Of a stretch of DNA of 64,000 bases, positions 44,110 through 62,305 are shown piece by piece (position 1 is the stretch's first letter; each line of letters begins with the position of its first letter). The translations under genes and the position numbers were made by a program. The notes beneath the pieces are model-generated. The model did not search any database and had not been told where the DNA came from. It worked only from the letters and a program-made list of their open reading frames with translations. Origin of the DNA: Albugo candida (Eukaryota); contig JBDOQK010000028.1 of the NCBI GenBank assembly GCA_040437565.1, forward strand, positions 1 to 64,000, written 5' to 3'.

Positions 44110-45055
44110 TCACGCCGCTAAGGTCCTATGCGGTTCAATCTTCTCTATGAGCCCTGCAAAGAGATTGAGAGCCAAAGCTTCCTTCATGCGTTCAGGATGC
44201 AAGTCTGAGGCTTTGTTCACTTGTCTCTTCCACACACTCGAAGTCGCAGCTTGGAGTCCACCCATTAGATAAAGCGAGTTCGGTCTGTTGGAGACCGCAA
44301 TGACTCCGTTACCACACAGTCGAGCAACATCACTGAGCTCAGACGGTGCCTTATTAAGTTCGCATAAAAGCATCTGCTTCCCATTTTCCACCAGTAGGAT
44401 GATAGTTGCGAGCGAACACGTGTTATTGATCTCTTTGGATCGATGCTGAGCAACCCAATCGCAATATAATTCTTCAAATTTGAAGAATAACAGACAGAAT
44501 AGTCTATAAAAAACCATTTCATCTTGTAAAAGCTGCCAATACATTGTCAATTGGACCGGGAAGCGTCCCGGTTGGCCATCCGAGTCGACGAGATAGAAAA
44601 CTTGGCAGATTGATCGAGCGACAGCCATAGCTGTTTTGGCGAACGGGTACCCTCCACGACGCCTCCGCATTAGCGTGAATTCTGTATGATGATTTTGAAC
44701 AAAGTAGATCAAGCAGCGTAAGCCCAGCTCGCCCATAGACCGCAGATCATCGCCTGGGTTACAAGAAGAGAAACCCGCTTTCCATTTCCAAAATTCGCTT
44801 ATTGGCTCGAATTTCCTGCTAGATTTTTGATTATCTACGAGATTCCAGAATTGCTCCAAAAGGCTCAAGTGCTAGAGGGGATAATAGTATTCCAATAAAT
44901 CGAACAATTAGCGATGGTATCGATGTAATTAGGTAAACCTGTGGGGACTGGAGCAAACGTGAATACAGCAATTTTTGTAGCCTGTACAAAATCATAATTT
45001 CTTTGTCATTTGGCTGCCTACCGAGCTCTTTCGTGTGACTCGACTGATTCCCCAT
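44110..45055 (-). CDS. ELMO/CED-12 domain protein, 1 intron, N-terminal MGNQSS
   Basis: WKWKAGFSSCNPGDDLRSMGELGLRCLIYF and YPFA motifs; GT-AG intron at about 44873-44938. Confidence 0.85.
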
Positions 45056-45225
45056 TCTTGCGATCTTCAAAAGACACAAAAACAGAGTGCCAATTATANN
45101 NNNNNNNNNNNNNNNNNNNNNNNNNNNNNNNNNNNNNNNNNNNNNNNNNNNNNNNNNNNNNNNNNNNNNNNNNNNNNNNNNNNNNNNNNNNNNNNNNNAA
45201 AACAGAGTGCCAATTATATATTAAA

Positions 45226-45291
45226 CCAATCATACTGCTGCTAAAATGGAACAAACCAATCGGATTTCAAAACAGCACAAATACAGCCAAT
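45226..45291. promoter_or_regulatory. Three CCAAT boxes upstream of the ELMO gene
   Basis: CCAATC at 45226, 45256 and 45287; retained in the duplicate at 57086, 57116 and 57147. Confidence 0.5.
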
Positions 45292-45301
45292 CAGCTGTAT
45301 C

Positions 45302-46315
45302 TATAGAATCGCAAATGTTCACGCAACTGAACAGAAATGAGATTTTTTTCCGCAAGCCGATCGCTCAAATGCGAGCCAAAAGCACTCGCTGGAATTCAAA
45401 ATCCTTCTTTTGTGCAGCTGAGAGTCAGGATTCCATTTCTCTTGTGCCAAAAGCATTGCACACTCGGCAATGACGCGACTGATGAATCCGTAGCCTGGAT
45501 CGCCTTCACCATGGATACTTGCGCTTATGGCAAGCTGACCATCTTCCTTATAGCCCAATGCAGAAGCTACAAAAAATCCATTTTGAATGGTGGTATCGGA
45601 TGCTTCTTGGCTGGGTGCCGGTGCGAATCGTTTCAGAATGGCCCGCGTCCACCGGAAATAAAGCATGATTCCTTGCAAGTACAACGCAATGGTCAATGCG
45701 AGCTCAAAAAGGAATCCATCCAGTGCAAATCGTATATCAAATACAAATCGGTCACCATAACGATTGTTTGAAAATAGTTGCTGAGATGAACGAAAGTGGA
45801 ATCAAGCGTCCCTCTATCATTCAGTGCTGTCGACCTGTCGATATCCTTATCATATGACATTAGCAAACGCGATTGGTTCTTCTTGACGAGTCCATTGGCC
45901 TCTTTGGCTTGCATCACATCAGTCACGGCCAGCATGAACGGATTCCGCATCCTGTTAAGCTCTCCCGATGTGCTTGTGTCCACATGCGCAAACAATCTCG
46001 CACAGGTTTAGCAGCCACGGTAGGACACCGTTCCATCATCTTCTTAACCCAAACCAATTTTCCGGTCAAGTCGCAGTAGAGTACCCGTTTCGGGACACAA
46101 TTGAAAGAGAACTGTTCCATACAGAGTGTAATGTCCCACGACAGTGAGAACCACTTTGATCGATTTCACCATTTTGAGCAAAGAATCTCTATCATGAGAA
46201 TCTGCGACGTATCGAAAGATTTCGAATCCACATTCGATAATTTCTTTTGTAGATTTTGTAAAAGAGATCGCAACTTTCCTTCGCTGCATCCTGCCAGCGT
46301 CCATTTCATTGAAGA
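45302..46315 (-). pseudogene. Saccharopine dehydrogenase-like oxidoreductase pseudogene
   Basis: Aligns by eye to 57523-58800, but lacks the start codon and GASGxTG motif, has a ~160-bp deletion near 46006, and carries frameshifts. Confidence 0.92.
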
Positions 46316-46357
46316 ATAACATAAAAATATCATGTGCATTCACCTAGTTTATATAAA

Positions 46358-47317
46358 TCAAACAAGACTAGGCTTTTCCATACATCTGTCATGAACCAGG
46401 ATCGGATGGTGCATTTCCACAAAAAGGTGGTACACTCCAGCCCCGATGGCGCCACCGACTATTGGGCCTACAGTTGGCACCCAAAAGTAGTAATCTTGCA
46501 TTGTGAATGTCTTGAATCCCCATCCACCAATTGCGGATAGGAATCTTGAAGCTAAGTCTCCCGCTGGATTGATAGCACCCCCGGTATTCATTCCAAAAGA
46601 CGCTCCAATAGCGATAACAAGCAGCGCAGTGGCGCCTGGAGCGGTGTATGGACCTGCGGGTTTGTTACGTTGGTCTCCGATTGCAAAGATTCCACCCATG
46701 AGAAGCGCTGTTCCGAAGGCCTCAGATAAAAATGCGCTTGCATTCGAGATTGCGGCGTTCGGGTAGGTCGCAAACAGTCCATGTGTAGTCTCTCGTTCGG
46801 GGTCGATGACATTAAAAATAGGATAATAGATTGCAAGAACCATCGCTGCGCCACAAAACGCACCTAACAGCTGTGCTAGAATGTAAAAAGGAGCTTTTCG
46901 CCATGGAAAACGTCGAAATAAAGCCAATGTCGTAGTTACTGCTGGATTAATATGTGCGCCACTGACACCGCCAGCGCAATGAATCCCAAAAAGAACGCCC
47001 AGACCCCAACCCATATTGATACTCAAGTACACACCGCTATTTTGTTGTGATAAAACTACTTGCGCAACGACACCGTTACCAAAGCAAAGAAGAATAAATG
47101 TGCCCAGAAACTCTGCCAAACATTCTCGTAACAGCTGATTCTTTATTGCGCAGCCACTTGGCATTTCCATCATCGTAGCTTTCGGCTCGTGATCGAGATC
47201 TGAGTACCCGCTGTCTTTAACTCCACCCATTGTTACTAGTTCCACGGAAGCGGATTGCCGCATGTCATTACCATCAGCATCGGCATACATAATCACAGAG
47301 AAATCTTGATACCCCAT
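46358..47317 (-). CDS. Aquaglyceroporin (MIP family) with atypical NPAG loop E
   Basis: AEFLGT, SGAHINPAVT, FATYP, GGAINPAGD in an intact 319-aa ORF. Confidence 0.95.
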   Translation of the reverse strand: MGYQDFSVIMYADADGNDMRQSASVELVTMGGVKDSGYSDLDHEPKATMMEMPSGCAIKNQLLRECLAEFLGTFILLCFGNGVVAQVVLSQQNSGVYLSINMGWGLGVLFGIHCAGGVSGAHINPAVTTTLALFRRFPWRKAPFYILAQLLGAFCGAAMVLAIYYPIFNVIDPERETTHGLFATYPNAAISNASAFLSEAFGTALLMGGIFAIGDQRNKPAGPYTAPGATALLVIAIGASFGMNTGGAINPAGDLASRFLSAIGGWGFKTFTMQDYYFWVPTVGPIVGGAIGAGVYHLFVEMHHPILVHDRCMEKPSLV

Positions 47318-47530
47318 TTGATCGGCAGTAGCGAGTCAAAGAATTATTGATCTAGAGACTCAAAAGTGCGAGTAACGAATCAAGAATATAAGAGACTGAG
47401 AATCAATTGAGGTTGTCGTGAAAGTATCTGNNNNNNNNNNNNNNNNNNNNNNNNNNNNNNNNNNNNNNNNNNNNNNNNNNNNNNNNNNNNNNNNNNNNNN
47501 NNNNNNNNNNNNNNNNNNNNNNNNNNNNNN

Positions 47531-47845
47531 ACCCCAACCCATATTGATACTCAAGTACACACCGCTATTTTGTTGTGATAAAACTACTTGCGCAACAACA
47601 CCGTTACCAAAGCAAAGAAGAATAAATGTGCCCAGAAACTCTGCCAAACATTCTCGTAACAGCTGATTCTTGATTGCCCAGCCACTTGGCATTTCCGTCA
47701 TCGTAGCTTTCGGTTCGTGATCGAGATCTGAGTACCCGCTGTCTTTAACTCCACCCATAGTTACTAGTTCCACGGAAGCGGGTTGCCGCATGTCATCACC
47801 ATCAGCATCGGCATACATTATCACAGAGAAATCTTGATACCCCAT
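47531..47845 (-). CDS. Aquaglyceroporin 5' fragment, cut by a gap (third copy or alternate haplotype)
   Basis: Nearly identical to 47010-47317 but with several substitutions (N/D, S/P, M/T, C/W). Confidence 0.6.
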
Positions 47846-50014
47846 TTGAATGGAAGCACAGAGTCAAAAGGTTATTGATCTAGAAACTCAAAAGTGCGGG
47901 AACGACTCAAGAATTCAGGAGACTGAGAATCAATTGAGGTTGTCGTGAAAGTATCTGATCGGCGCGACCCAGAGATGAAATTGGTATATGAGTAGCAATG
48001 TGAGATTTCTAGCTGTAAGAACCATGAAGTCGTGAAATTTGTATTACACCTTTCTGCCAGATGGTATGCATGCGAATAGAATCAACCATACGTCACTGTA
48101 CACTAGCTAAATCATCTTGGCTTTCAAATTTCATAGTGTGACCATACTAGACACATCCGTACCGTCATCTGTCTCTTTCCGTTTACATCAGAGAGACAGA
48201 TTCCGACTGGTGACCCATTACTTAAAGGGCACACACCAGCTGTGTTGAGCGAAAATTGGAAATTACGTTTTTATGTTGATAGGTCCGTAGTTCACAAAAA
48301 GCGAATCTAAGCCAACGCCGCAGCATTCACCATCTTGATATTCTATACCGCTTGTGACAATGATACTTACACTGACTTCACGCGTAAGCAATCTTCTAAA
48401 CTTCTGTTGTGGGAAAGGAGTGTGTTAGTCATGACTTTTTGACCATCTTCTTCCTCACTCCCCCTCAAAGCACTACTCCTGATGTTCGCCTGGTGAACCG
48501 AATCTTGGAATTGTTCGTCGAAATAGGCTTTCTCAAGAAATCTGCAAGTTGATGTTTTGATTCAATGTACTCAATCTGTATTTCTGCAACCTTCAGAGGA
48601 TCACGAAAAAAATGGTATCGAACATCAATATGTTTAGCCCGACCTTGATATCCGATATTTTTCGCATTAGCAATAGCACTTTGATTATCCTCAAAAATAG
48701 TTTGTTATTGATTAATGTTTTGCCTTCAACTCAGATAACAAATTCTTGAGCCATATAACTTCTTGCACACAGAGTGGCAGTGCGATGTACTCTGCCAGCC
48801 GTACTGAGTGCTACACTTTGTTGAATTATATGATTTGAAGATCAGTGGGGCTCCGCTTATCATAATCATGATTCCAGAAACAGATCTTCTGTCTCCCTTG
48901 CTATTTACCCAATCCGCGTCACTATACGCACATACCTTCAAAACCTTCCCGCCGCCTCTGTATGAAATCCCGTTGTCACTTGTTAACTTCATGTATCGCA
49001 GAGCTCTTATCGCTGCTTTACAGTGCTCTTCACTATGTAGTTCCAAATGTCGACTAAGTTGACCGACTGAGAGGGCAATATACGCTTTTGTTCCATATAT
49101 GTAGAGTAATGATCCCACTACAGATCAATTAGGACGAAATTTTATCCTCGAGTCTTCTTGTTCAAACCTTGATAAAACTTGGCCTTAAAACATTGGAGGT
49201 GCAAACTTGCTTTGCGTCGATTTATTTGAACTATTCGATCATCTATGTATGCCGAATACTTGACATATCTTCACCACACGTTTCGTCTGACCTTAATCTA
49301 CTTGTATTCCCGACATATAAATGACCTTTTCGATTCCGTTCACTTAAAATGTTGGCTTACTTTGCCGGAAGTCCCCTTTTTTTCTTCCAAAGTCGTTGCA
49401 CCCATTACCACGTCATCAACACATAATGCGATGTATACCAGCGACTTTCCTTTTTGTCGACAAACATGCATGAGTCTGTCCTACACTGTTTAAATTCCAT
49501 TTCCAAGAATACTTTCGATATTGTCTTAAACCAAGTTAAAGCTGCCTGCTCCAAAATCATACAAACTTCTATTCAGATGACAAACTTCATTACGCTGAGC
49601 CTGGACACCTCTAGGTGGTATACGTATATCTTTTCCTCCAGGTACCAATGCCCATTCAAAGACTAGGTGTCGATATCAATTTGCTTAATTTTGGAAACCT
49701 TCGTGACAGCATGCCGATAAGTAAATACTGATAGAATTCATGTTTGCAGCTGGTGCATATGAATCCATATTATCAACCTCGATATCCCAAAGCAACAAGT
49801 CTAGCTTTATAATTTTCAATTTCACCGAATTCATTTCGCTTCAAGGTGAATACCCATTTTGTTCCAATAACCATCATATTCGGTTTCATGTAAGTCAAAG
49901 TCTATGTGTTCTTTGTTATTTTGTTAGAGGGAAAAAGGGCAAGCATATTATCAAAATCATTAGTCACCTACGGGCCACTAATCACAACATCACAGCTAGA
50001 TTTGTCGACAGCTA

Positions 50015-50645
50015 GATTGTCTGGGAAGATGATCAGGGAGCTATCGCATTTGCCACGAACCCAGGATAGCATTTACGAACGAAATATGGGGATACCCGCC
50101 ATCACTTTATTCGTGAGAAAATAATGACAGGTGTTATAAAAGTGATCTACGAGGGACGAAGTATCGACTCACTGACATTCAGACGAAAGCACTAGGAACC
50201 AAACGAATTCAATGCATTCGTGATTCAATGGGTATTAATTGAGCGTTCAACTTTATTGAGTGGAAGTGTGTTAAAACGTACATTATAGTTGAAGTACTAC
50301 ATGAGACTGCACCACGATATGCAAAGCGATGACTGTGAGCTATGGTACATAAGTCTCATGTAGTACTTCAACTATAATGTACGTTTTAACACACTCCCAC
50401 TCAATAAAGTTGAACGCTCAATTAATACCCATTGAATCACGAATGCATTGAATTAGTTTGGTTCCTAGTGCTTTCGTCTGAATGTCAGTGAGTCGATACT
50501 TCGTCCCTCGTAGATCATTTTTATAACACCTGTCATTATTTTCTCACGAATAAAGTGATGGCGGGTATCCCCATATTTCGTTCGTAAATGATATCCTGGG
50601 TTCGTGGCAAATGCGCTAGCTCCCTGATTATCTTCCCAGACAATC
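50015..50645. repeat. Long inverted repeat: 294-bp arms (50015-50308, 50352-50645), 43-bp spacer
   Basis: The arms are reverse complements, with about 6 mismatches counted by eye. Confidence 0.95.
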
Positions 50646-55400: not shown

Positions 55401-56574
55401 ACGAGGCTCCACTATCCAACAACCACGCTTGTTTACCACCATCATGAACTTTAAAATGCAATTGCATTCGCGTCCGTCACATTCTTTGTCTTGCACTCAT
55501 ATTGTTTGTGGCCTCCTTTGTCGTATCTATGACACGTTCCACGAAATTGCTTCTTCTTCTTTGTATCTTCATTTGTCGTTCTTTGTTGACGCATCGCCCG
55601 TCTTCTCCCTTGGCCATGGCATACGCGAAATGCACCCTCCGAGGTCTCTTTTTGTTGTTTCTCATCGTGCTCCTTCAGCAGCTTTTCTTTCACGTTCATC
55701 AGTGTTAGTCCATTTGAGTACTCTAGTATTGTTACCAGTAGCTCGTATTCAGCAGGCAAGCTTCCGAGCAAAATTGTCAGCGTTTTTTCTTCGTCCATCA
55801 CGTCTTCGAATGCTTCCATGCTTCAGGTGAGCTCGTCGAACGATCTATGTGGCTGACCATATTGCCTCCCTCTTCCATGCGAAACTCATGTAGTCTTCGA
55901 GTTAGAGCTATTCTGTTCTGGAGGTTGCGCTTGTTGTAGTATTTCACAAGAACTTCCTGGCTGTTGTCGCATGGCGAATCTTTTACTGATGCTCGACTTC
56001 GACTCGTTGTGCGATAATCGCAAAGGCTTTTAAATCCTTGACTCCCAGTCAGCACCTAAATCGTCCTCGGACTTCATTTCCATGATATGATTCAGCAGTC
56101 CTTTGCGCGCGAGGTCATCTTCATGTTGAATACCCAATGGAAGCAGTTGCCGTTCCCGAATAAGGCGTCCGGCTGTTTCATCTTCTTTCTGGTGCCACCA
56201 AACATCGTTGGGCTCATAGTTTGTTATTTTGTTGAAGGGAAAGTATATTATCAAGATTTTCAGTCACCTACGAGCCACTAATCGCAACACCACTTATGTA
56301 CCATACATCACAGTCGTCGCTTTCAAATATCGTAGATTCTTCTCATACAATACTTCAACTATAATGTACGCTATGATATTGTTCTCTTCAGCGCTTGAAG
56401 TTCTTGATCAGTGGCACTTTTCCAATCATTTGAATTTGCGGATCTCGTGATGTCGAAAGGACCCGACGCTTGGAATGGATAAAGCGTCTCTTGGTAAGCG
56501 GACCATAAGCTTCACATAATGCAGGTATCATTTACCAGGCCCTGCTCGAGCAGCATGTACAATTAACAGGTTAG

Positions 56575-57035
56575 ACGACAAGATAGAAAAGTTGGCAGAT
56601 TGATCGAGCGACATCCATAGCAGTTTTGGAGAAAGAGTACCCTCCACGTCGCCGCCGCATCAGCGTGAACTCTGTATGATGATTTTGAGGAAATAGATCA
56701 AGCAGCGTAAGCCAGCTCGCCCATAGACCGCAGATCATCGCCTGGGGTACAAAAAAAGACACCCACTTTTCATTTCCAAACTCCGCTCATTGGCTCGAAC
56801 TTCCTTCTCAATGTTTGATTATGTATCTAGAATTGCTCCGAAAGGCTCAAGTGCTAGAGTGGATAAAAGCATTTCAATAAATCAAACAATCAGCGATGTA
56901 ATCGGTGTAATTAGGTAAACCTGTGGGGACTGGAGCAAAGTGTATACAGCAGTTTCTGCACTCTGTACACAATCATAATTTCTTTGTCATTTGGTTGCCA
57001 CCGAGCTCTTTCGTGTGACTCAACTGGTTCCCCAT
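56575..57035 (-). pseudogene. Truncated, frameshifted ELMO-domain gene copy
   Basis: Matches 44585-45055 (QNHHTEFTLMRRRRGGY) but has indels and lacks the 3' half. Confidence 0.9.
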
Positions 57036-57522
57036 TCTTGCGAGCTTCAAAACGCACAAAAACAGAGTGCGAATTATATATTAAACCAATCATACTGCTG
57101 CTAAATTGGAAGAAACCAATCGGATTTCGAAACAGCACAAATACAGCCAATCAGCTGTATCTTTAGAATCGCAAATGTTCACGCAACTGAATAGAAATGA
57201 GATTTTTCTCCGCAAGCCGATCGCTCAAATGCGAGCCAAAAGCACTCGCTGGAGTATAAAATCCTCCTTTCGTGGCAGCTGGAGAGTCAGGATTCCATTT
57301 CTCTTGTGCCAAAAGCATCGCACACTCGGCAATGACGCGACTGGTGAATCCGTAGCCTGGATCGCCTTCACCATGGATACTTGCGCTTANNNNNNNNNNN
57401 NNNNNNNNNNNNNNNNNNNNNNNNNNNNNNNNNNNNNNNNNNNNNNNNNNNNNNNNNNNNNNNNNNNNNNNNNNNNNNNNNNNNNNNNNAAACAGCACAA
57501 ATACAGCCAATCAGCTGTATCT

Positions 57523-58800
57523 TTAGAATCGCAAATGTTCACGCAACTGAATAGAAATGAGATTTTTCTCCGCAAGCCGATCGCTCAAATGCGAGCCAAA
57601 AGCACTCGCTGGAGTATAAAATCCTCCTTTCGTGGCAGCTGGAGAGTCAGGATTCCATTTCTCTTGTGCCAAAAGCATCGCACACTCGGCAATGACGCGA
57701 CTGGTGAATCCGTAGCCTGGATCGCCTTCACCATGGATACTTGCGCTTACGGCAAGCTGACCATCTTCCTTATAGCCCAATGCAGAGGCTACAAAAAATC
57801 CATTTTGAATGGTGGTATCGGATGCTTCTTGGCTGGGTGCCGGTGCGAATCGCTTCAGAATGGCCCGCGTCCACCGGAAATAAAGCATGATTCCTAGCAA
57901 GTACAACGCAATGGTCAATGCGAGCTCAAAAAAGAATCCATCCAGTGCAAATCGTTCATCAAATACGAATCGGTCACCATAACGATTGTTTAGCAAATAG
58001 TTGCTGAGATGAACGACAGCGGAATCAAGCGTCCCTCCAACACTCAGTGCTGTCCAGCTCTCGATATCCTTATCATATGACATTAGCAAACGCGATTGGT
58101 TCCTCTTGACGAGTCCATTGGCCTCTTTGGCTTGCATCACATCATTACCAGCCAGCATGAATGGATTCCGCATTCTTTTAAGCTCTTCCGATGTGCTTGT
58201 GTCCATGAGCGCAAACATACTCGCACAGGTTCCACCACTCAGCATTCCACGAAGACCCGTTATGTTATAAGATACTTTGGATGTTTTGGAATGAAACTTT
58301 TTCTCAATCGCATTTGCAATCATAAACGTTGCAATATCCGCCGGAATGGATTCGTACCCGCAAAACGGTACAATACGGGCTCCTGTTTTAGCAGCCACGG
58401 TAGAAAATCGTTCCATCATTTTCTTTACCCAAACCAATTCTCCTGTCAAGTCGCAGTAGTGTACCCCGTTTTCGGCACACAATTGAAGGAGAAGCGTTCC
58501 ATACAAAGTGTAAGGTCCCACCACAGTGAGCACTACTTTGGTCGATTTCACCATTTTGAGCAAAGAATCCTTATCATGAGAGTCTGCGACTATGATATTT
58601 ACTTGATCAAAAGCTTTCGACTCCACATTCGATAATTTCTTCTGTAGATTTTGTAAAAGAGACCGCAGCTTCTCCTCACTGCGTCCTGCCAGCGCCCATT
58701 TCATTGAGGAAGCATTATCTGATAGTAGGTAACGGGTTACTAGCGCGCCTGTAAGCCCGCTCGCACCAAATACAACAAAGTCGAATGCTTTCGAAGTCAT
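57523..58800 (-). CDS. Saccharopine dehydrogenase-like oxidoreductase (SCCPDH / trans-acting enoyl reductase family)
   Basis: FDFVVFGASGLTG, ALAGRS, VGPYTLYG, HYCDLTGE, CGYESIPAD, SGGT, GDPGY, GGFYTPA in an intact 425-aa ORF. Confidence 0.95.
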   Translation of the reverse strand: MTSKAFDFVVFGASGLTGALVTRYLLSDNASSMKWALAGRSEEKLRSLLQNLQKKLSNVESKAFDQVNIIVADSHDKDSLLKMVKSTKVVLTVVGPYTLYGTLLLQLCAENGVHYCDLTGELVWVKKMMERFSTVAAKTGARIVPFCGYESIPADIATFMIANAIEKKFHSKTSKVSYNITGLRGMLSGGTCASMFALMDTSTSEELKRMRNPFMLAGNDVMQAKEANGLVKRNQSRLLMSYDKDIESWTALSVGGTLDSAVVHLSNYLLNNRYGDRFVFDERFALDGFFFELALTIALYLLGIMLYFRWTRAILKRFAPAPSQEASDTTIQNGFFVASALGYKEDGQLAVSASIHGEGDPGYGFTSRVIAECAMLLAQEKWNPDSPAATKGGFYTPASAFGSHLSDRLAEKNLISIQLREHLRF

Positions 58801-59032
58801 ATTGCGCGATCTTTCCAGAATGAAACGTAGTGCAAAAGTTTGCCGAACTTATTGGAGCATAAAATCATTATGTTCGTTCTACCTAGATTATATACAACTA
58901 GGCTTTGCCTAAACTCGCTCATTNNNNNNNNNNNNNNNNNNNNNNNNNNNNNNNNNNNNNNNNNNNNNNNNNNNNNNNNNNNNNNNNNNNNNNNNNNNNN
59001 NNNNNNNNNNNNNNNNNNNNNNNAGGCTTTGC

Positions 59033-59971
59033 CTAAACTCGCTCATTTACCCGGATCGGATGGTGCATTTCTACACAAAGCTGGTACACTCCAGCGCCAA
59101 AGGCGCCACCGATTATTGGGCCAAAAATGGGCACCAAAAAGTAATAATTTTGCAATGTGAATGTCTTGAATCCCCATCCACCAATTGCGGACAGGAACCT
59201 TGGACCCAAATCTCGCGCTGGATTAATCGCATACCCGGTATTCATTCCAAAAGACATTCCAATAGCGAGAACAAGCAGCGCAGTGGCGGCTGGAGCGGTG
59301 TATGGACTTGCGGGTTTGTTATGTTGATCCCCGATTGCAAAAATTCCACCCAAGAGAAGTGCTGTTCCAAAGGCCTCGCATAAAAATGCGCTTGCATTCG
59401 AGACTGCGGCGTTCGGGTAGGTCGCAAACACTCCTTGTGTAGTCTCTCGTTCAGGGTCGACGGAATTGAAAACAGGATAATAGATTGCAAGAACCATCGC
59501 AGCTCCACAAAACGCACCTAATAGCTGTGCTAGAATGTAGTAAGGAACTTTTCGCCATGAAAAACGTCGAAATAGAGCCAATGTCGTGGTTACTGCTGGA
59601 TTAAGATGTGCGCCACTGACACCGCCGGAGCAATGAATCCCAAAAAGAACGCCCAGACCCCAACCCATATTGATACTCAAGTACGTACCGCTATTTTGCT
59701 GTGATAAAACTACTTGCGCAACGACACCGTCACCAAAACAGAGAAGAACAAATGTTCCCAGGAACTCTGCCAAACATTCTCGTAACAGCTGGTTCTTAGT
59801 TGCGTACTCACTTAGTATTCCCATCATCGCAGCTTCCGGTTCGTAATCAAGATTTGAGTATCCCCTGTCTTTAGCTCCACCCATCGTTACTCTTTCCACG
59901 GAAGCGGGTTGCCGCATGTCATCACCATCAGCATCGGCATCCATGATCACAGAGAAATCGTGATGCGCCAT
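59033..59971 (-). CDS. Aquaglyceroporin (MIP family), canonical
   Basis: SGAHLNPAVT and GYAINPARDLGPR. Confidence 0.96.
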   Translation of the reverse strand: MAHHDFSVIMDADADGDDMRQPASVERVTMGGAKDRGYSNLDYEPEAAMMGILSEYATKNQLLRECLAEFLGTFVLLCFGDGVVAQVVLSQQNSGTYLSINMGWGLGVLFGIHCSGGVSGAHLNPAVTTTLALFRRFSWRKVPYYILAQLLGAFCGAAMVLAIYYPVFNSVDPERETTQGVFATYPNAAVSNASAFLCEAFGTALLLGGIFAIGDQHNKPASPYTAPAATALLVLAIGMSFGMNTGYAINPARDLGPRFLSAIGGWGFKTFTLQNYYFLVPIFGPIIGGAFGAGVYQLCVEMHHPIRVNERV

Positions 59972-60739
59972 TTGAATGAAAATACAGAGTCAAAGAGTTT
60001 AGATCTAGAGACTCGAAAGTGTGGGAACCGAGTCAAAATTCAAAAGACTGAGACTTGATTGAGGTTGTCGTGAAAGTATCTGATCGGCGCGACCCAGAAA
60101 GGGAATTGATAAATGAGCAATAATGTGAGAGATTTGGTTGTATAAAACATGAAAGTCGTGCAAAATAGGTATCCACGTTTTTGCCGGATGGTATGCTGAA
60201 AGAACCAAAAAGTCAACAGGTTGCTGACAGACGAAAAGACGGTAAAGTGTGCCATGGCGTAGAGAAGCAACCTTAGGTCACTGGTACACTAGCTGAATCA
60301 TCTTCGCTCTACTTTATCCTTAATTCAATGACTAATCGAATTACACAATGTGCATCTTGCCGAACACCACCGAAACGTCACCTGTCTCTTTCCCTTTACA
60401 TCAGAAAGACACATTCTGACTGCCGACCCATTACCCAAAGGGCACACACACCAACTTATGTGTACTTTCCCAAGAAGAAGTCCTATTTCGATCCGATACC
60501 CTAAACCTGAAACCGAAATGTTGACACCCAATGATGTCCCTTACGAAACATCTTGTTCAAGTTACAAACAAAAGCTGTAATGCTTTACATTCTCGGGCAT
60601 CAGCTAATTCAGTGTTTAAGGCTGTGAATCCTTTACATAGCTTTCGGAATTCGTGGGGTTTTCACGCGTTAGTGCCCAAACAGTCATAGAGATCAAACGT
60701 GTGAAATGGAGTGTATTGCCTGCCAAATTTAATGTAATT

Positions 60740-62305
60740 TTAAGTGTCAAGTTGCGCTTGCAATGCATCACGAGCGGCAAAAGCAATTCTAGCAGCATGT
60801 CGAGCTGCTTCTTCATTATCCTTGCTAATCTGCGCATCCTTAAATGCGGATTCCAACAGTCTTGAAAGCTTTTGTATTTCCGCAGCCTGATGTGTTGTGC
60901 ATGCTCTCAATCGTTCTACTTCCTTTTTTTCTTCATCTAGCTGTGCCTGGAATGTCACTTTCTCCTTCAAATGAAGTTTCCGAGCAGTGATGAGTTTCTG
61001 TGTCAGCTCTTCGATAATCCTCCGGCTCTCTCGTAACTTTTCCGTTCTCTCGTGAATGTTTGCCTTCTCTTCATCCTGAATAGCCTTCTCTTCGTGATCT
61101 GAGAAGAGGTTCGGATCGCGCGAAGAAGTGACTATTGTCGATGGAGAATAAGGTAACGGCATCATCGCTGGAGAGGTGCAATATTGTCCTGAATCGTAAT
61201 ATGAACGTGACTCGTCTTCCAGTGCATCTTCGTCGTAATCGGTGTTTATAAAGCCGAGAGATAGATTTACGCTTTTTCGAATCGATAATGGTTCCTCTGC
61301 GTCGATTTGATTGGATACATCCATTTCGTCCGAATCAGGAGGCAATATGTTATTTCCCTCATCTTCTTCGGTGTCAATCTCTGTATCAGTTTCATTATTG
61401 AGTAGATTGCCACGCATACAATGTTCAGGTGGAATTTTTGCACGCATCGGTACATCTTTGAGAAATGCAGACAATTTTGTCGAGTGAAGATCATTCTTTT
61501 TCGAGACGCTATCTTCTTCTTTGTTTTTGATGCGCTCTGCTCCTCTATACGCGTTCTTGATTCGCTCGTGTTTTTCAGCGATGTGCTCTGCTTTCTCGAC
61601 CGGTTTGGTGTTTGGCCCTACCTTTTCAGCCGGTCTCTTCATGCGCTCGCGATGGTTGGATCTAGCCACTTTGTCGGTGAACCGATTCAAGAATTCGTCG
61701 AGTTTGTGAGAGCGTTTAGATTCTTGTGGTTTACAAGGTGCCTCAATCGATTTGCGGTTTACTCGCCGTGGGAAACTAGGAACGGTTTGTTGTTTTGTAT
61801 CTGAAGTGAAGCGCTCGCGTAGTGCATTTAAACACATACATACGCTTGTTTCGTTTTTATCGTGAACGAGTTCCAAACTCGTGAATGTATACCGTTCTTC
61901 TAGTTCGACAACCTCTCGACACCAACGTAAAAATAATTGTACACGTTCCATACTGTGAAATGGTGTGACTTGATGTAAGCTGCGATTCACATTTGCTTTG
62001 AATATACTTCTGACAACTCGGTCTTTTTTCTGCAATGAATTTTGTGTGTTTTGTAAAACGTATGCAAGAGTGTATAGTAAACGTCCATCAAGGAGTAGCT
62101 CGCAGAACAAAGTAGATTGCTCTTTCACGTCTTGTATACTTTGCTCAAGTTTATTCCACTGCGTCGAAGTAATGACTCCACTCGGAAGTGCGGTATTCGC
62201 TTGACGCACGCAGTCATAAAACCATGTTCGTAATATTACCTTGAGATCTGGAGAAAAAAGCTTAGACTCGCTCGATCGGCGTGTTAGTTTGATTCCTAAG
62301 AACAT
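60740..62305 (-). CDS. Calponin-homology-like domain plus coiled-coil protein
   Basis: LLDGRLLYTLA, PFHSMERVQLFLRWC, FTSLELVHDKN...VCMCL; C-terminal heptad-rich region. Confidence 0.75.
   Translation of the reverse strand: MFLGIKLTRRSSESKLFSPDLKVILRTWFYDCVRQANTALPSGVITSTQWNKLEQSIQDVKEQSTLFCELLLDGRLLYTLAYVLQNTQNSLQKKDRVVRSIFKANVNRSLHQVTPFHSMERVQLFLRWCREVVELEERYTFTSLELVHDKNETSVCMCLNALRERFTSDTKQQTVPSFPRRVNRKSIEAPCKPQESKRSHKLDEFLNRFTDKVARSNHRERMKRPAEKVGPNTKPVEKAEHIAEKHERIKNAYRGAERIKNKEEDSVSKKNDLHSTKLSAFLKDVPMRAKIPPEHCMRGNLLNNETDTEIDTEEDEGNNILPPDSDEMDVSNQIDAEEPLSIRKSVNLSLGFINTDYDEDALEDESRSYYDSGQYCTSPAMMPLPYSPSTIVTSSRDPNLFSDHEEKAIQDEEKANIHERTEKLRESRRIIEELTQKLITARKLHLKEKVTFQAQLDEEKKEVERLRACTTHQAAEIQKLSRLLESAFKDAQISKDNEEAARHAARIAFAARDALQAQLDT

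Follow-up and report, generated by a model that had tools for sequence, protein, structure and literature searches.

A lineage-specific aquaglyceroporin paralogue of Albugo candida, probably retained under selection, with glycine at both loop-E positions of its selectivity filter

The closest described counterpart of the gene pair considered here is the tandem pair AQP2 and AQP3 of Trypanosoma brucei, which share 74% identity; AQP3 carries Trp-Gly-Tyr-Arg (WGYR) at the four positions (H2, H5, LE1, and LE2) of the selectivity filter termed aromatic/arginine (ar/R), and AQP2 (TbAQP2) carries Ile/Val/Leu/Leu, together with NSA and NPS boxes (PMC7473772). A high dN/dS (ratio of non-synonymous to synonymous substitution rates, also omega) is reported for TbAQP2, from which its authors infer that positive selection acted towards a larger pore, one through which pentamidine can enter (PMC7473772). 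More generally, the filter Arg helps to repel protons and cations, together with the region of the Asn-Pro-Ala (NPA) boxes (PMC4150397). Here, a pair that may mirror that of T. brucei in outline is described from 64,000 nucleotides of the oomycete Albugo candida, a white-rust pathogen and obligate biotroph (NCBI GenBank assembly GCA_040437565.1, contig JBDOQK010000028.1, positions 1 to 64,000; this whole stretch is referred to as the window). Copy A is an intact open reading frame (ORF) of the major intrinsic protein (MIP) family with Gly at both LE1 and LE2, and copy B is its WGYR paralogue. With about even confidence, copy A is interpreted as a lineage-specific, selectively retained aquaglyceroporin paralogue stripped of its outer constriction, whose pore would probably be broader, without charge at this point, and less discriminating, leaving the exclusion of cations to the intact NPA region.

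MIPs that lack the LE2 Arg are already known. Plant TIP1 aquaporins, with a His-Ile-Ala-Val filter, are natural functional MIPs of this kind, although they belong to the water/ammonia branch and not to the glycerol-facilitator (GLP) branch, and hydrophobic Val, not Gly, replaces their Arg. In the glycerol channel AQP3, the filter is formed by Phe63, Tyr212, and Arg218, and Tyr212 corresponds to Tyr223 in AQP7 and Phe200 in GlpF (PMC11926279). Within the oomycetes, a survey of six Phytophthora species describes the tetrad WGYR for most groups, namely A and D-G, and states that every Phytophthora MIP has an aromatic H2 residue and an LE2 Arg (10.1101/394395); Albugo is not mentioned in that survey (0 occurrences). 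In the literature searched on Albugo aquaporins and oomycete MIP filters, no description was found of copy A, or of an oomycete that pairs a W/G/G/G filter with a canonical twin.

The selectivity filter of copy A

Loop E of copy A reads GGAINPAGDLASR, whereas copy B and the single orthologue of Albugo laibachii read GYAINPARDL[GS]PR. In the HMMER alignment to AQP3, in whose first block the query position minus 41 gives the chain position, the residues of copy A aligned with F63, Y212, and R218 are W104, G247, and G253, respectively. G238 is taken to be the H5 position, equivalent to GlpF G191 and AQP3 G203. By this alignment, the tetrad of copy A is W104/G238/G247/G253, and that of copy B and A. 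laibachii is WGYR. Copy A retains the two NPA boxes of an MIP, but it has neither the Arg expected of an MIP at LE2 (G253) nor the aromatic residue expected of a GLP channel at LE1 (G247), where that residue makes a hydrophobic corner together with the H2 Trp or Phe. The adjoining positions have changed as well: the Met replaced at position 239 is 97% conserved among the 78 top homologues, and the Pro of the Gly-Pro turn, which is Ser257 in copy A, is present in 78 of 78.

The sequence-only reading of the window had pointed to four codon changes relative to copy B (TAT to GGT, CGA to GGA, GGT to GCT, and CCA to TCA), all of which are present between 46547 and 46579; M239A is a further change that it had not listed. 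It had also proposed that these changes would produce a W/G/G/G filter, and that the Tyr and Arg they replace correspond to F200 and R206 of the ar/R constriction of GlpF. The alignment to AQP3 agrees with this in that the changed sites fall on Y212 and R218, the LE1 and LE2 residues, the former corresponding to GlpF Phe200 (PMC11926279); both copy B and A. laibachii are canonical WGYR. Its statements that the Arg serves in cation exclusion and that TbAQP2, without this Arg, passes large solutes accord with the published work (PMC4150397; PMC7473772).

A survey of 268 aligned sequences (copies A and B and 266 homologues) sets this filter in context. The tetrad WGYR is the commonest (147 of 268), and WGGG occurs once. 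Of the 262 homologues in which the LE2 column is occupied, 256 have Arg; Pro stands four residues after LE2 in 250 of 263 so occupied, and Tyr or Phe at LE1 in 218 of 266, with Gly in 5. Copy B and the A. laibachii protein share the tetrad described for most Phytophthora groups, while copy A breaks the rule of an LE2 Arg (10.1101/394395).

Among the Arg-less homologues is a clade of GLP-type MIPs from three genera of Saprolegniales (P0181, P0273, P0210, and P0271), with loop E reading NPAVDFGGR in Saprolegnia diclina (SDRG_08143), NPAVDFAGR in Thraustotheca clavata, and NPAADLGCR in Aphanomyces invadans (H310_03931). In these proteins LE2 is Val or Ala and the Pro four residues further on is lost (GGR, AGR, and GCR), the same pairing as R253G and P257S in copy A; unlike copy A, they retain the LE1 Tyr. 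Since they are only 36-39% identical to copy A, their loss of Arg is independent and much older. Pro is missing from 4 of 6 Arg-less sequences vs. 8 of 256 Arg-bearing ones (Fisher P 3.7e-5, for sequences that are not phylogenetically independent). Neither a discussion nor a published function of this clade was found in the oomycete MIP literature searched. Along with TbAQP2, and with the AQP3 mutant Y212T discussed below, it is taken as a precedent for the viability of GLP-type channels without the Arg.

Apart from the filter, copy A is well preserved. The Pfam MIP family is matched by both copies (E 5.7e-50 for A and 4.1e-52 for B), by copy A with 170.6 bits against PF00230 (cutoff 25) over profile positions 5-222 of 222, and the two proteins are 82% identical across 311 residues without a gap; at the nucleotide level, 103 differences separate the copies. 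A sequence search gives AQP3, AQP7, AQP10, and GlpF as the solved structures nearest to copy A (E 1e-56 to 1e-47). Members of the GLP class have Asp right after LE2 and Arg or Lys four residues further on (Froger-type positions); copy A has D254 and R258, which are invariant in the alignments, and its closest solved matches are glycerol channels. With GlpF, AQP3, AQP7, and AQP10 it shares the two NPA boxes, the H5 Gly, the H2 aromatic residue, and the Asp and Arg after the second NPA box. The difference lies in loop E: these channels have an aromatic residue at LE1 (F200 in GlpF, Y212 in AQP3, Y223 in AQP7) and Arg at LE2, two positions that are Gly in copy A, which also has Ala-Ser where they have the Gly-Pro turn.

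Copy B shows a change of its own at codon 279 (59135-59137), where W279L turns YYFWVP into YYFLVP; Trp occupies this position in 77 of 77 top homologues, in A. laibachii, and in copy A.

Origin and retention of the copy

The next relative of the pair is a single A. laibachii protein (P0003), 74% identical to copy A, and one A. laibachii and two A. candida proteins stand among the 120 best matches. The maximum-likelihood tree, (A. laibachii 0.14, (A 0.22, B 0.032)), groups A and B as sisters with support of 86/79; judged from these sequences, the duplication is specific to Albugo candida and took place after the split from A. laibachii. When residue changes are polarised by A. laibachii, 36 are specific to copy A and 7 to copy B, with 13 unpolarised, and a relative-rate test finds the A branch accelerated (chi-square 19.6, P 1e-5). 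The pairwise dN/dS between the copies is 0.43, with a dS of 0.21. Hand arithmetic that splits the synonymous changes evenly and the non-synonymous ones by 36:7 gives an omega of approximately 0.7 for the A branch and 0.13 for the B branch, and a value of 0.7 does not, on its own, separate relaxed constraint from adaptive change. Moreover, a second A-type sequence in the window, termed A' and comprising the first 105 codons, differs from copy A over these codons, with 4 non-synonymous changes against 5 synonymous ones (omega 0.21, binomial P 0.026). A separate history of the loop-E patch, either as a conversion tract or by escape from homogenisation, was considered as well; codons 247-260 have the highest synonymous divergence of the 14-codon windows (0.54 vs. 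0.19), and with a permutation P of 0.60 such a history is unsupported.

The coding sequence (CDS) of copy A contains neither an indel nor a stop relative to copy B in 933 nt. The blastn high-scoring segment pair (HSP) that holds it has 6 gap openings and, since the CDS is gap-free over 311 codons, all of these fall in the approximately 125 nt of non-coding sequence of that HSP; the HSPs of the dehydrogenase remnant beside copy A have 3, 2, and 10. After approximately 72 random substitutions, about 10% of simulants remain stop-free. Stop-free neutral simulants, matched to copy A for the number of replacements and scored against a profile of oomycete-type homologues, were used as the null in what follows. 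Over the full length, with a profile of 79 oomycete-like homologues, copy A scores 431.1 bits, and simulants with 49 replacements score 373.4 +/- 11.0 (maximum 408.6), so that 0 of 400 reach copy A. Over the core (residues 61-300), with an Albugo-free profile, the values are 395.3 for copy A and 364.4 +/- 8.1 for the simulants, and again none of 400 reaches it.

The cost of the replacements is concentrated in the filter region. With the five changes at positions 239, 247, 253, 256, and 257 reverted, copy A scores 415.8 against 423.5 for the approximate ancestor, i.e., its 23 other core changes cost 7.7 bits, and simulants with 23 core replacements score 375.2 +/- 7.4, with 0 of 400 reaching 415.8. 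The five changes alone cost 20.5 bits, about double the 10.5 +/- 3.7 of five random replacements, and no more than 2 of 400 random sets reach that cost. At sites that are at least 90% conserved, copy A has three specific changes, all of them within residues 239-257, a window picked post hoc, after seeing the data.

Thus, the CDS without indel or stop, the profile-score simulations, and the omega of A' vs. A argue for retention rather than decay. These comparisons show that purifying selection has maintained copy A as a protein-coding MIP along most of its sequence, and it is conserved except at the end of helix 5 and in loop E, where the residues replaced are the most conserved ones. The sequence-only reading had described an ORF that is still intact beside a decayed neighbour of the same duplicated block, and this describes the locus well: the 319-residue ORF is uninterrupted, and the dehydrogenase gene is broken beside copy A and intact beside copy B. 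What that reading made of these facts holds in part. A copy that is retained and specifically remodelled rather than decaying is what the missing indels and stops and the simulations point to, whereas positive selection does not follow from an A-branch omega of approximately 0.7.

A different account of the same data is that copy A is a recently inactivated duplicate, which was long constrained and then underwent its filter changes or was silenced, so that stops and indels have not yet accumulated. This is considered unlikely, although it has a good deal in its favour. The A-branch omega is approximately 0.7-1, the A branch is seven times longer than the B branch, and the block partner, the dehydrogenase, is already a pseudogene. 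The sites lost are those most highly kept elsewhere (LE2 Arg and Pro at +4), and five loop-E changes that are costlier than random would be expected of a disabling hit as well. On the other hand, seven nucleotide changes are packed into 19 codons, and neutral accumulation predicts many more damaging hits in the core, where the other 23 changes cost just the 7.7 bits that none of the neutral simulants equals. The absence of indels in 933 nt despite frequent indels in the flanks, the omega of 0.21 between A' and A, and the conservation of the paired loss of Arg and Pro in the Saprolegniales clade also speak against inactivation.

Several observations weigh against the interpretation of copy A as a selectively retained, remodelled channel, quite apart from the account of inactivation. 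If the non-coding flanks, with a divergence of 12-15%, are taken as the neutral yardstick, the A-branch omega rises to approximately 1, and with values from about 0.7 to 1 the substitution counts alone cannot reject neutrality; since omega does not exceed 1, positive selection is not demonstrated. The depletion of A-specific changes at conserved sites, assessed by counting, is not significant (3 observed vs. 5.7 expected, P 0.13), and the concentration of such changes in residues 239-257 depends on the post hoc choice of that window. The simulation null, for its part, assumes uniform mutation and an approximate ancestor (copy B with seven codons taken from copy A). Finally, copy A is present in no run recorded as RNA in the public run listing, an observation that inactivation would also accommodate, and the only public gene model for it (P0001) joins it to the pseudogene remnant, which is not suggestive of transcript-based curation.

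Predicted pore and rival functions

The AlphaFold model of copy A (mean predicted local distance difference test, pLDDT, of 87; predicted template modelling score, pTM, of 0.82; core blocks at 92-99) places helices at residues 61-89, 97-119, 125-133, 142-163, 192-214, 226-241, 251-266, and 269-299, so that the prediction has the six transmembrane helices and two re-entrant half-helices of an MIP. Against AQP3, AQP7, and GlpF, the target-normalised TM score of the model is 0.91-0.95, with a root-mean-square deviation (rmsd) of 1.1-1.6 Å, and this range of TM scores also covers AQP10 and TbAQP2.

The comparisons above demonstrate the evolutionary history of copy A; its pore width, substrates, expression, and localisation are inferred. 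The gene arose together with its dehydrogenase neighbour in a segmental duplication of approximately 3.7 kb. The substitutions M239A, Y247G, R253G, G256A, and P257S have removed the aromatic wall of the ar/R filter and its conserved Arg, with W104, both NPA boxes, and the D254 and R258 positions kept during this change of loop E. The monomer is expected still to fold as a six-helix MIP and to join a tetramer. Its outer constriction would be lined only by Trp104 and backbone atoms and, as a consequence, would be wider and uncharged, in which case the size limit would be set by the NPA region. Bulkier neutral solutes, such as larger polyols and perhaps other host metabolites, should be admitted, and the exclusion of protons and cations would be weaker, resting on the dipoles of the NPA helices alone. 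The much wider pore proposed by the sequence-only reading is a matter of inference only, and its role as a channel for host solutes in a biotroph a matter of speculation.

The comparison with T. brucei is close in some respects and distant in others. Both systems consist of a recent duplicate pair in a parasite, in which one copy is WGYR and the other lacks the LE1 aromatic residue and the LE2 Arg, and in both the changed copy evolves faster (PMC7473772). Copy A also matches the TbAQP2 structures 8jy6 and 8ofx in sequence (E 1e-31) and in fold (target-normalised TM 0.91-0.92). However, of the bulky or charged side chains of the filter, all of which TbAQP2 has lost, copy A has lost those at LE1 and LE2 and keeps Trp104, and its NPA boxes are unaltered; TbAQP2 has replaced the H2 Trp by Ile, has Leu and Val as the other replacements, and has NSA and NPS boxes, whereas copy A has Gly (PMC7473772). 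A high dN/dS is attributed to TbAQP2, which stands in tandem with TbAQP3 (PMC7473772); copy A has a branch omega of approximately 0.7, and 12 kb separate it from copy B, which is not its immediate neighbour. In addition, transport is a measured property of TbAQP2 and a predicted one of copy A.

A functional copy A need not be a wide pore. Its loop E may narrow or plug the channel, and the protein may be gated or of low conductance, act intracellularly, or serve as a subunit of hetero-tetramers with copy B; taken together, these options are held to be rather improbable. The evidence for selective maintenance fits any function, and in AQP3 the LE1 replacement Y212T leaves loop E more disordered; the loop then lies over the pore in nanodiscs and constricts it in detergent (PMC11926279). 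Accordingly, the loss of a side chain need not widen a pore, and this adds to the points already raised against a wide-pore interpretation of copy A. Two Gly residues and a Pro-to-Ser change after the half-helix would add backbone freedom, and mixed tetramers are plausible for copies that are 82% identical and have conserved helix faces. Two further points add to those against a retained, wide-pore channel: the mutation R187C of the filter Arg in human AQP2 causes misfolding, and AlphaFold is insensitive to point changes, so that the confident fold of copy A is no proof of a stable loop E. Against a narrowed or plugged pore, AQP3 Y212T still conducts glycerol faster than the wild type (PMC11926279), and the pore is enlarged in TbAQP2, where these same side chains are missing (PMC7473772).

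It is possible, if rather doubtful, that A. candida, independently of trypanosomes but along the same path, from a recent duplicate next to a WGYR copy, has evolved a wide-mouthed aquaglyceroporin that is kept by selection and whose ar/R filter, Trp with three Gly residues, is more stripped than any other noted so far in the GLP branch. On this view, the loss of Arg would be structurally coupled to that of the Gly-Pro turn after loop E, as it also is in the conserved Arg-less clade of Saprolegniales.

The locus, its sequence support, and its significance

Copies A and B, the loci of which are approximately 12 kb apart, lie within a bounded segmental duplication of about 3.7 kb, in each block of which the aquaporin is followed downstream by a saccharopine-dehydrogenase-like gene (Table 1). 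Identity between the blocks is 85-88% outside one patch of 94-95% (45199-46008 vs. 57059-58231), which lies within the dehydrogenase remnant and suggests later gene conversion between the blocks. This remnant is spread over several frames, has in-frame stops in three of four tblastn pieces, lacks its start, and carries a deletion of approximately 50 codons.

Table 1. Positions of the duplicated blocks, their genes, and the filter codons in the window.
Feature	Positions	Strand	Basis
Copy A, MIP/aquaglyceroporin ORF, 319 aa, intact	46358..47317	-	ORF list, Pfam, alignment
Copy B, WGYR paralogue, 312 aa, orthologue-like copy	59033..59971	-	ORF list, Pfam, alignment
Copy A codon 104, Trp, H2 filter position, aligned to AQP3 F63	47006..47008	-	Alignment
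Copy A first NPA box, N124-P125-A126, intact	46940..46948	-	Alignment
Copy A codons 238-239, G238 (H5) kept, M239A (GCG vs. ATG in B)	46601..46606	-	Codon comparison
Copy A codon 247, LE1, GGT (Gly) vs. TAT (Tyr) in B, aligned to AQP3 Y212	46577..46579	-	
Copy A second NPA box, N250-P251-A252, intact	46562..46570	-	Alignment
Copy A codon 253, LE2, GGA (Gly) vs. CGA (Arg) in B, aligned to AQP3 R218	46559..46561	-	
Copy A codons 256-257, GCT TCA (Ala-Ser) vs. GGT CCA (Gly-Pro) in B	46547..46552	-	
Duplicated block A, homologous to 56573-60449	44583..48236	.	blastn-type comparison
Duplicated block B	56573..60449	.	blastn-type comparison
Saccharopine-dehydrogenase-like gene, intact, 425 aa, PF03435, downstream of copy B	57523..58800	-	Pfam
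Saccharopine-dehydrogenase-like pseudogene beside copy A	45306..46315	-	tblastn
A', first 105 codons of a second A-type sequence, ATG at 47845	47531..47845 (with upstream region to 47957)	-	

The assembly of this region is fragmented, and a third alternative, namely that errors of assembly or sequencing produced the Gly codons or that A and B are diverged alleles and not paralogues, starts from this fact: the scaffold in the window has 15 gaps of 100 N, two of them bordered by duplicated sequence, and copy A lies on a 2.2 kb contig between gaps. Public sequencing runs make this alternative very improbable. At least half of the sampled words of the copy A stretch occur in 17 public runs, and some of the stretch is found in 20 rows from 14 studies. 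A-type contigs over 46508-47018, with 1-2 differences, were obtained from three of the four runs examined (X3, X10, and X17, from different studies and years), and these span the loop-E codons; beside it, each of the three runs carries a contig of B type, at 46 differences. Since not every position of the 1-2 differences is listed, at most a single one of the four changed residues could differ from strain to strain, and one of the runs examined is possibly the source of the assembly. The fourth, X19, yields a piece over 46365-46872 with 8 differences. Moreover, block homology ends at 44583/56573 and at 48236/60449, which places the two copies in different contexts on one scaffold and counts against artefact and alleles alike.

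A public A. candida protein (P0001, 406 aa) also counts against an artefact, since its first 309 residues are the same as those of copy A; copy B is likewise on record. The P0001 model removes a 53-nt GT..AG stretch (46344-46396) that holds the stop codon of copy A, which fuses the gene to the pseudogene ORF 46044-46343. No joint is listed for this splice, and the contigs of three runs cross it unspliced, although contigs cannot exclude splicing; the splice is probably an ab initio artefact. Runs X17 and X19 carry an RNA label that is only a guess; X17 provides its A-type contig over 46508-47018 and no cover over 47075-47430, and X19 the piece over 46365-46872. Word depth for A-type vs. B-type sequence is 31 vs. 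1031 in X17 and 49.8 vs. 53 in the DNA run X3, but contig depth cannot rank genes, and no conclusion on transcription is drawn from these values.

Directly upstream of copy A, A' abuts the gap of 100 N at 47431-47530. Over 428 nt (the 5' part of copy A and the region upstream), its identity to copy A is 94%, and relative to copy B the two share 46 changes, with 8 private to A' and 12 to copy A, which rules out A' as a chimera of A and B reads. The sequence of A' is compatible with a tandem copy, with an allele, and with overlapping contigs that were not merged, and the single contig type over 47075-47430 in the DNA run X3 indicates that it may be missing from some strains.

Other features of the window were noted in passing. 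A translated stretch of approximately 86 residues occurs on both sides of the gap at 57390-57489 (57106-57897), with flanks that match the same part of block A, and this repeat looks like two overlapping contigs left unmerged, an artefact of assembly where the dehydrogenase-like gene has its 3' end. Between the blocks, 50015-50645 (approximately 630 nt) is a long palindromic inverted repeat, 94% identical to its own reverse complement. Upstream of block B, a 521-residue ORF (60740-62305, minus strand) has a sub-threshold match to calponin homology (20.8 bits vs. a cutoff of 26), and upstream of block A, no Pfam match is obtained for the ORF 48726-49118.

No functional residue of aquaporins is more highly conserved than the ar/R Arg, and the natural channels without it are few and each informative on selectivity. 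The Albugo genes provide a second parasite lineage with a pair of canonical and stripped paralogues, only 18% apart in sequence, and thereby a natural experiment on the LE1 aromatic residue and the LE2 Arg in a glycerol-type pore with intact NPA boxes. With this pair, it can also be examined whether the Gly-Pro turn and the Arg evolve together. If copy A were silent or non-conducting, it would be merely an unusually well-preserved young duplicate. As a functional channel, it would indicate a lineage-specific change of solute exchange in an obligate biotroph. Should its pore be wide-mouthed, copy A could serve at the haustorial interface for the uptake of larger polyols of the host or of other solutes and, by analogy with TbAQP2, might offer an entry route for bulky or cationic compounds.

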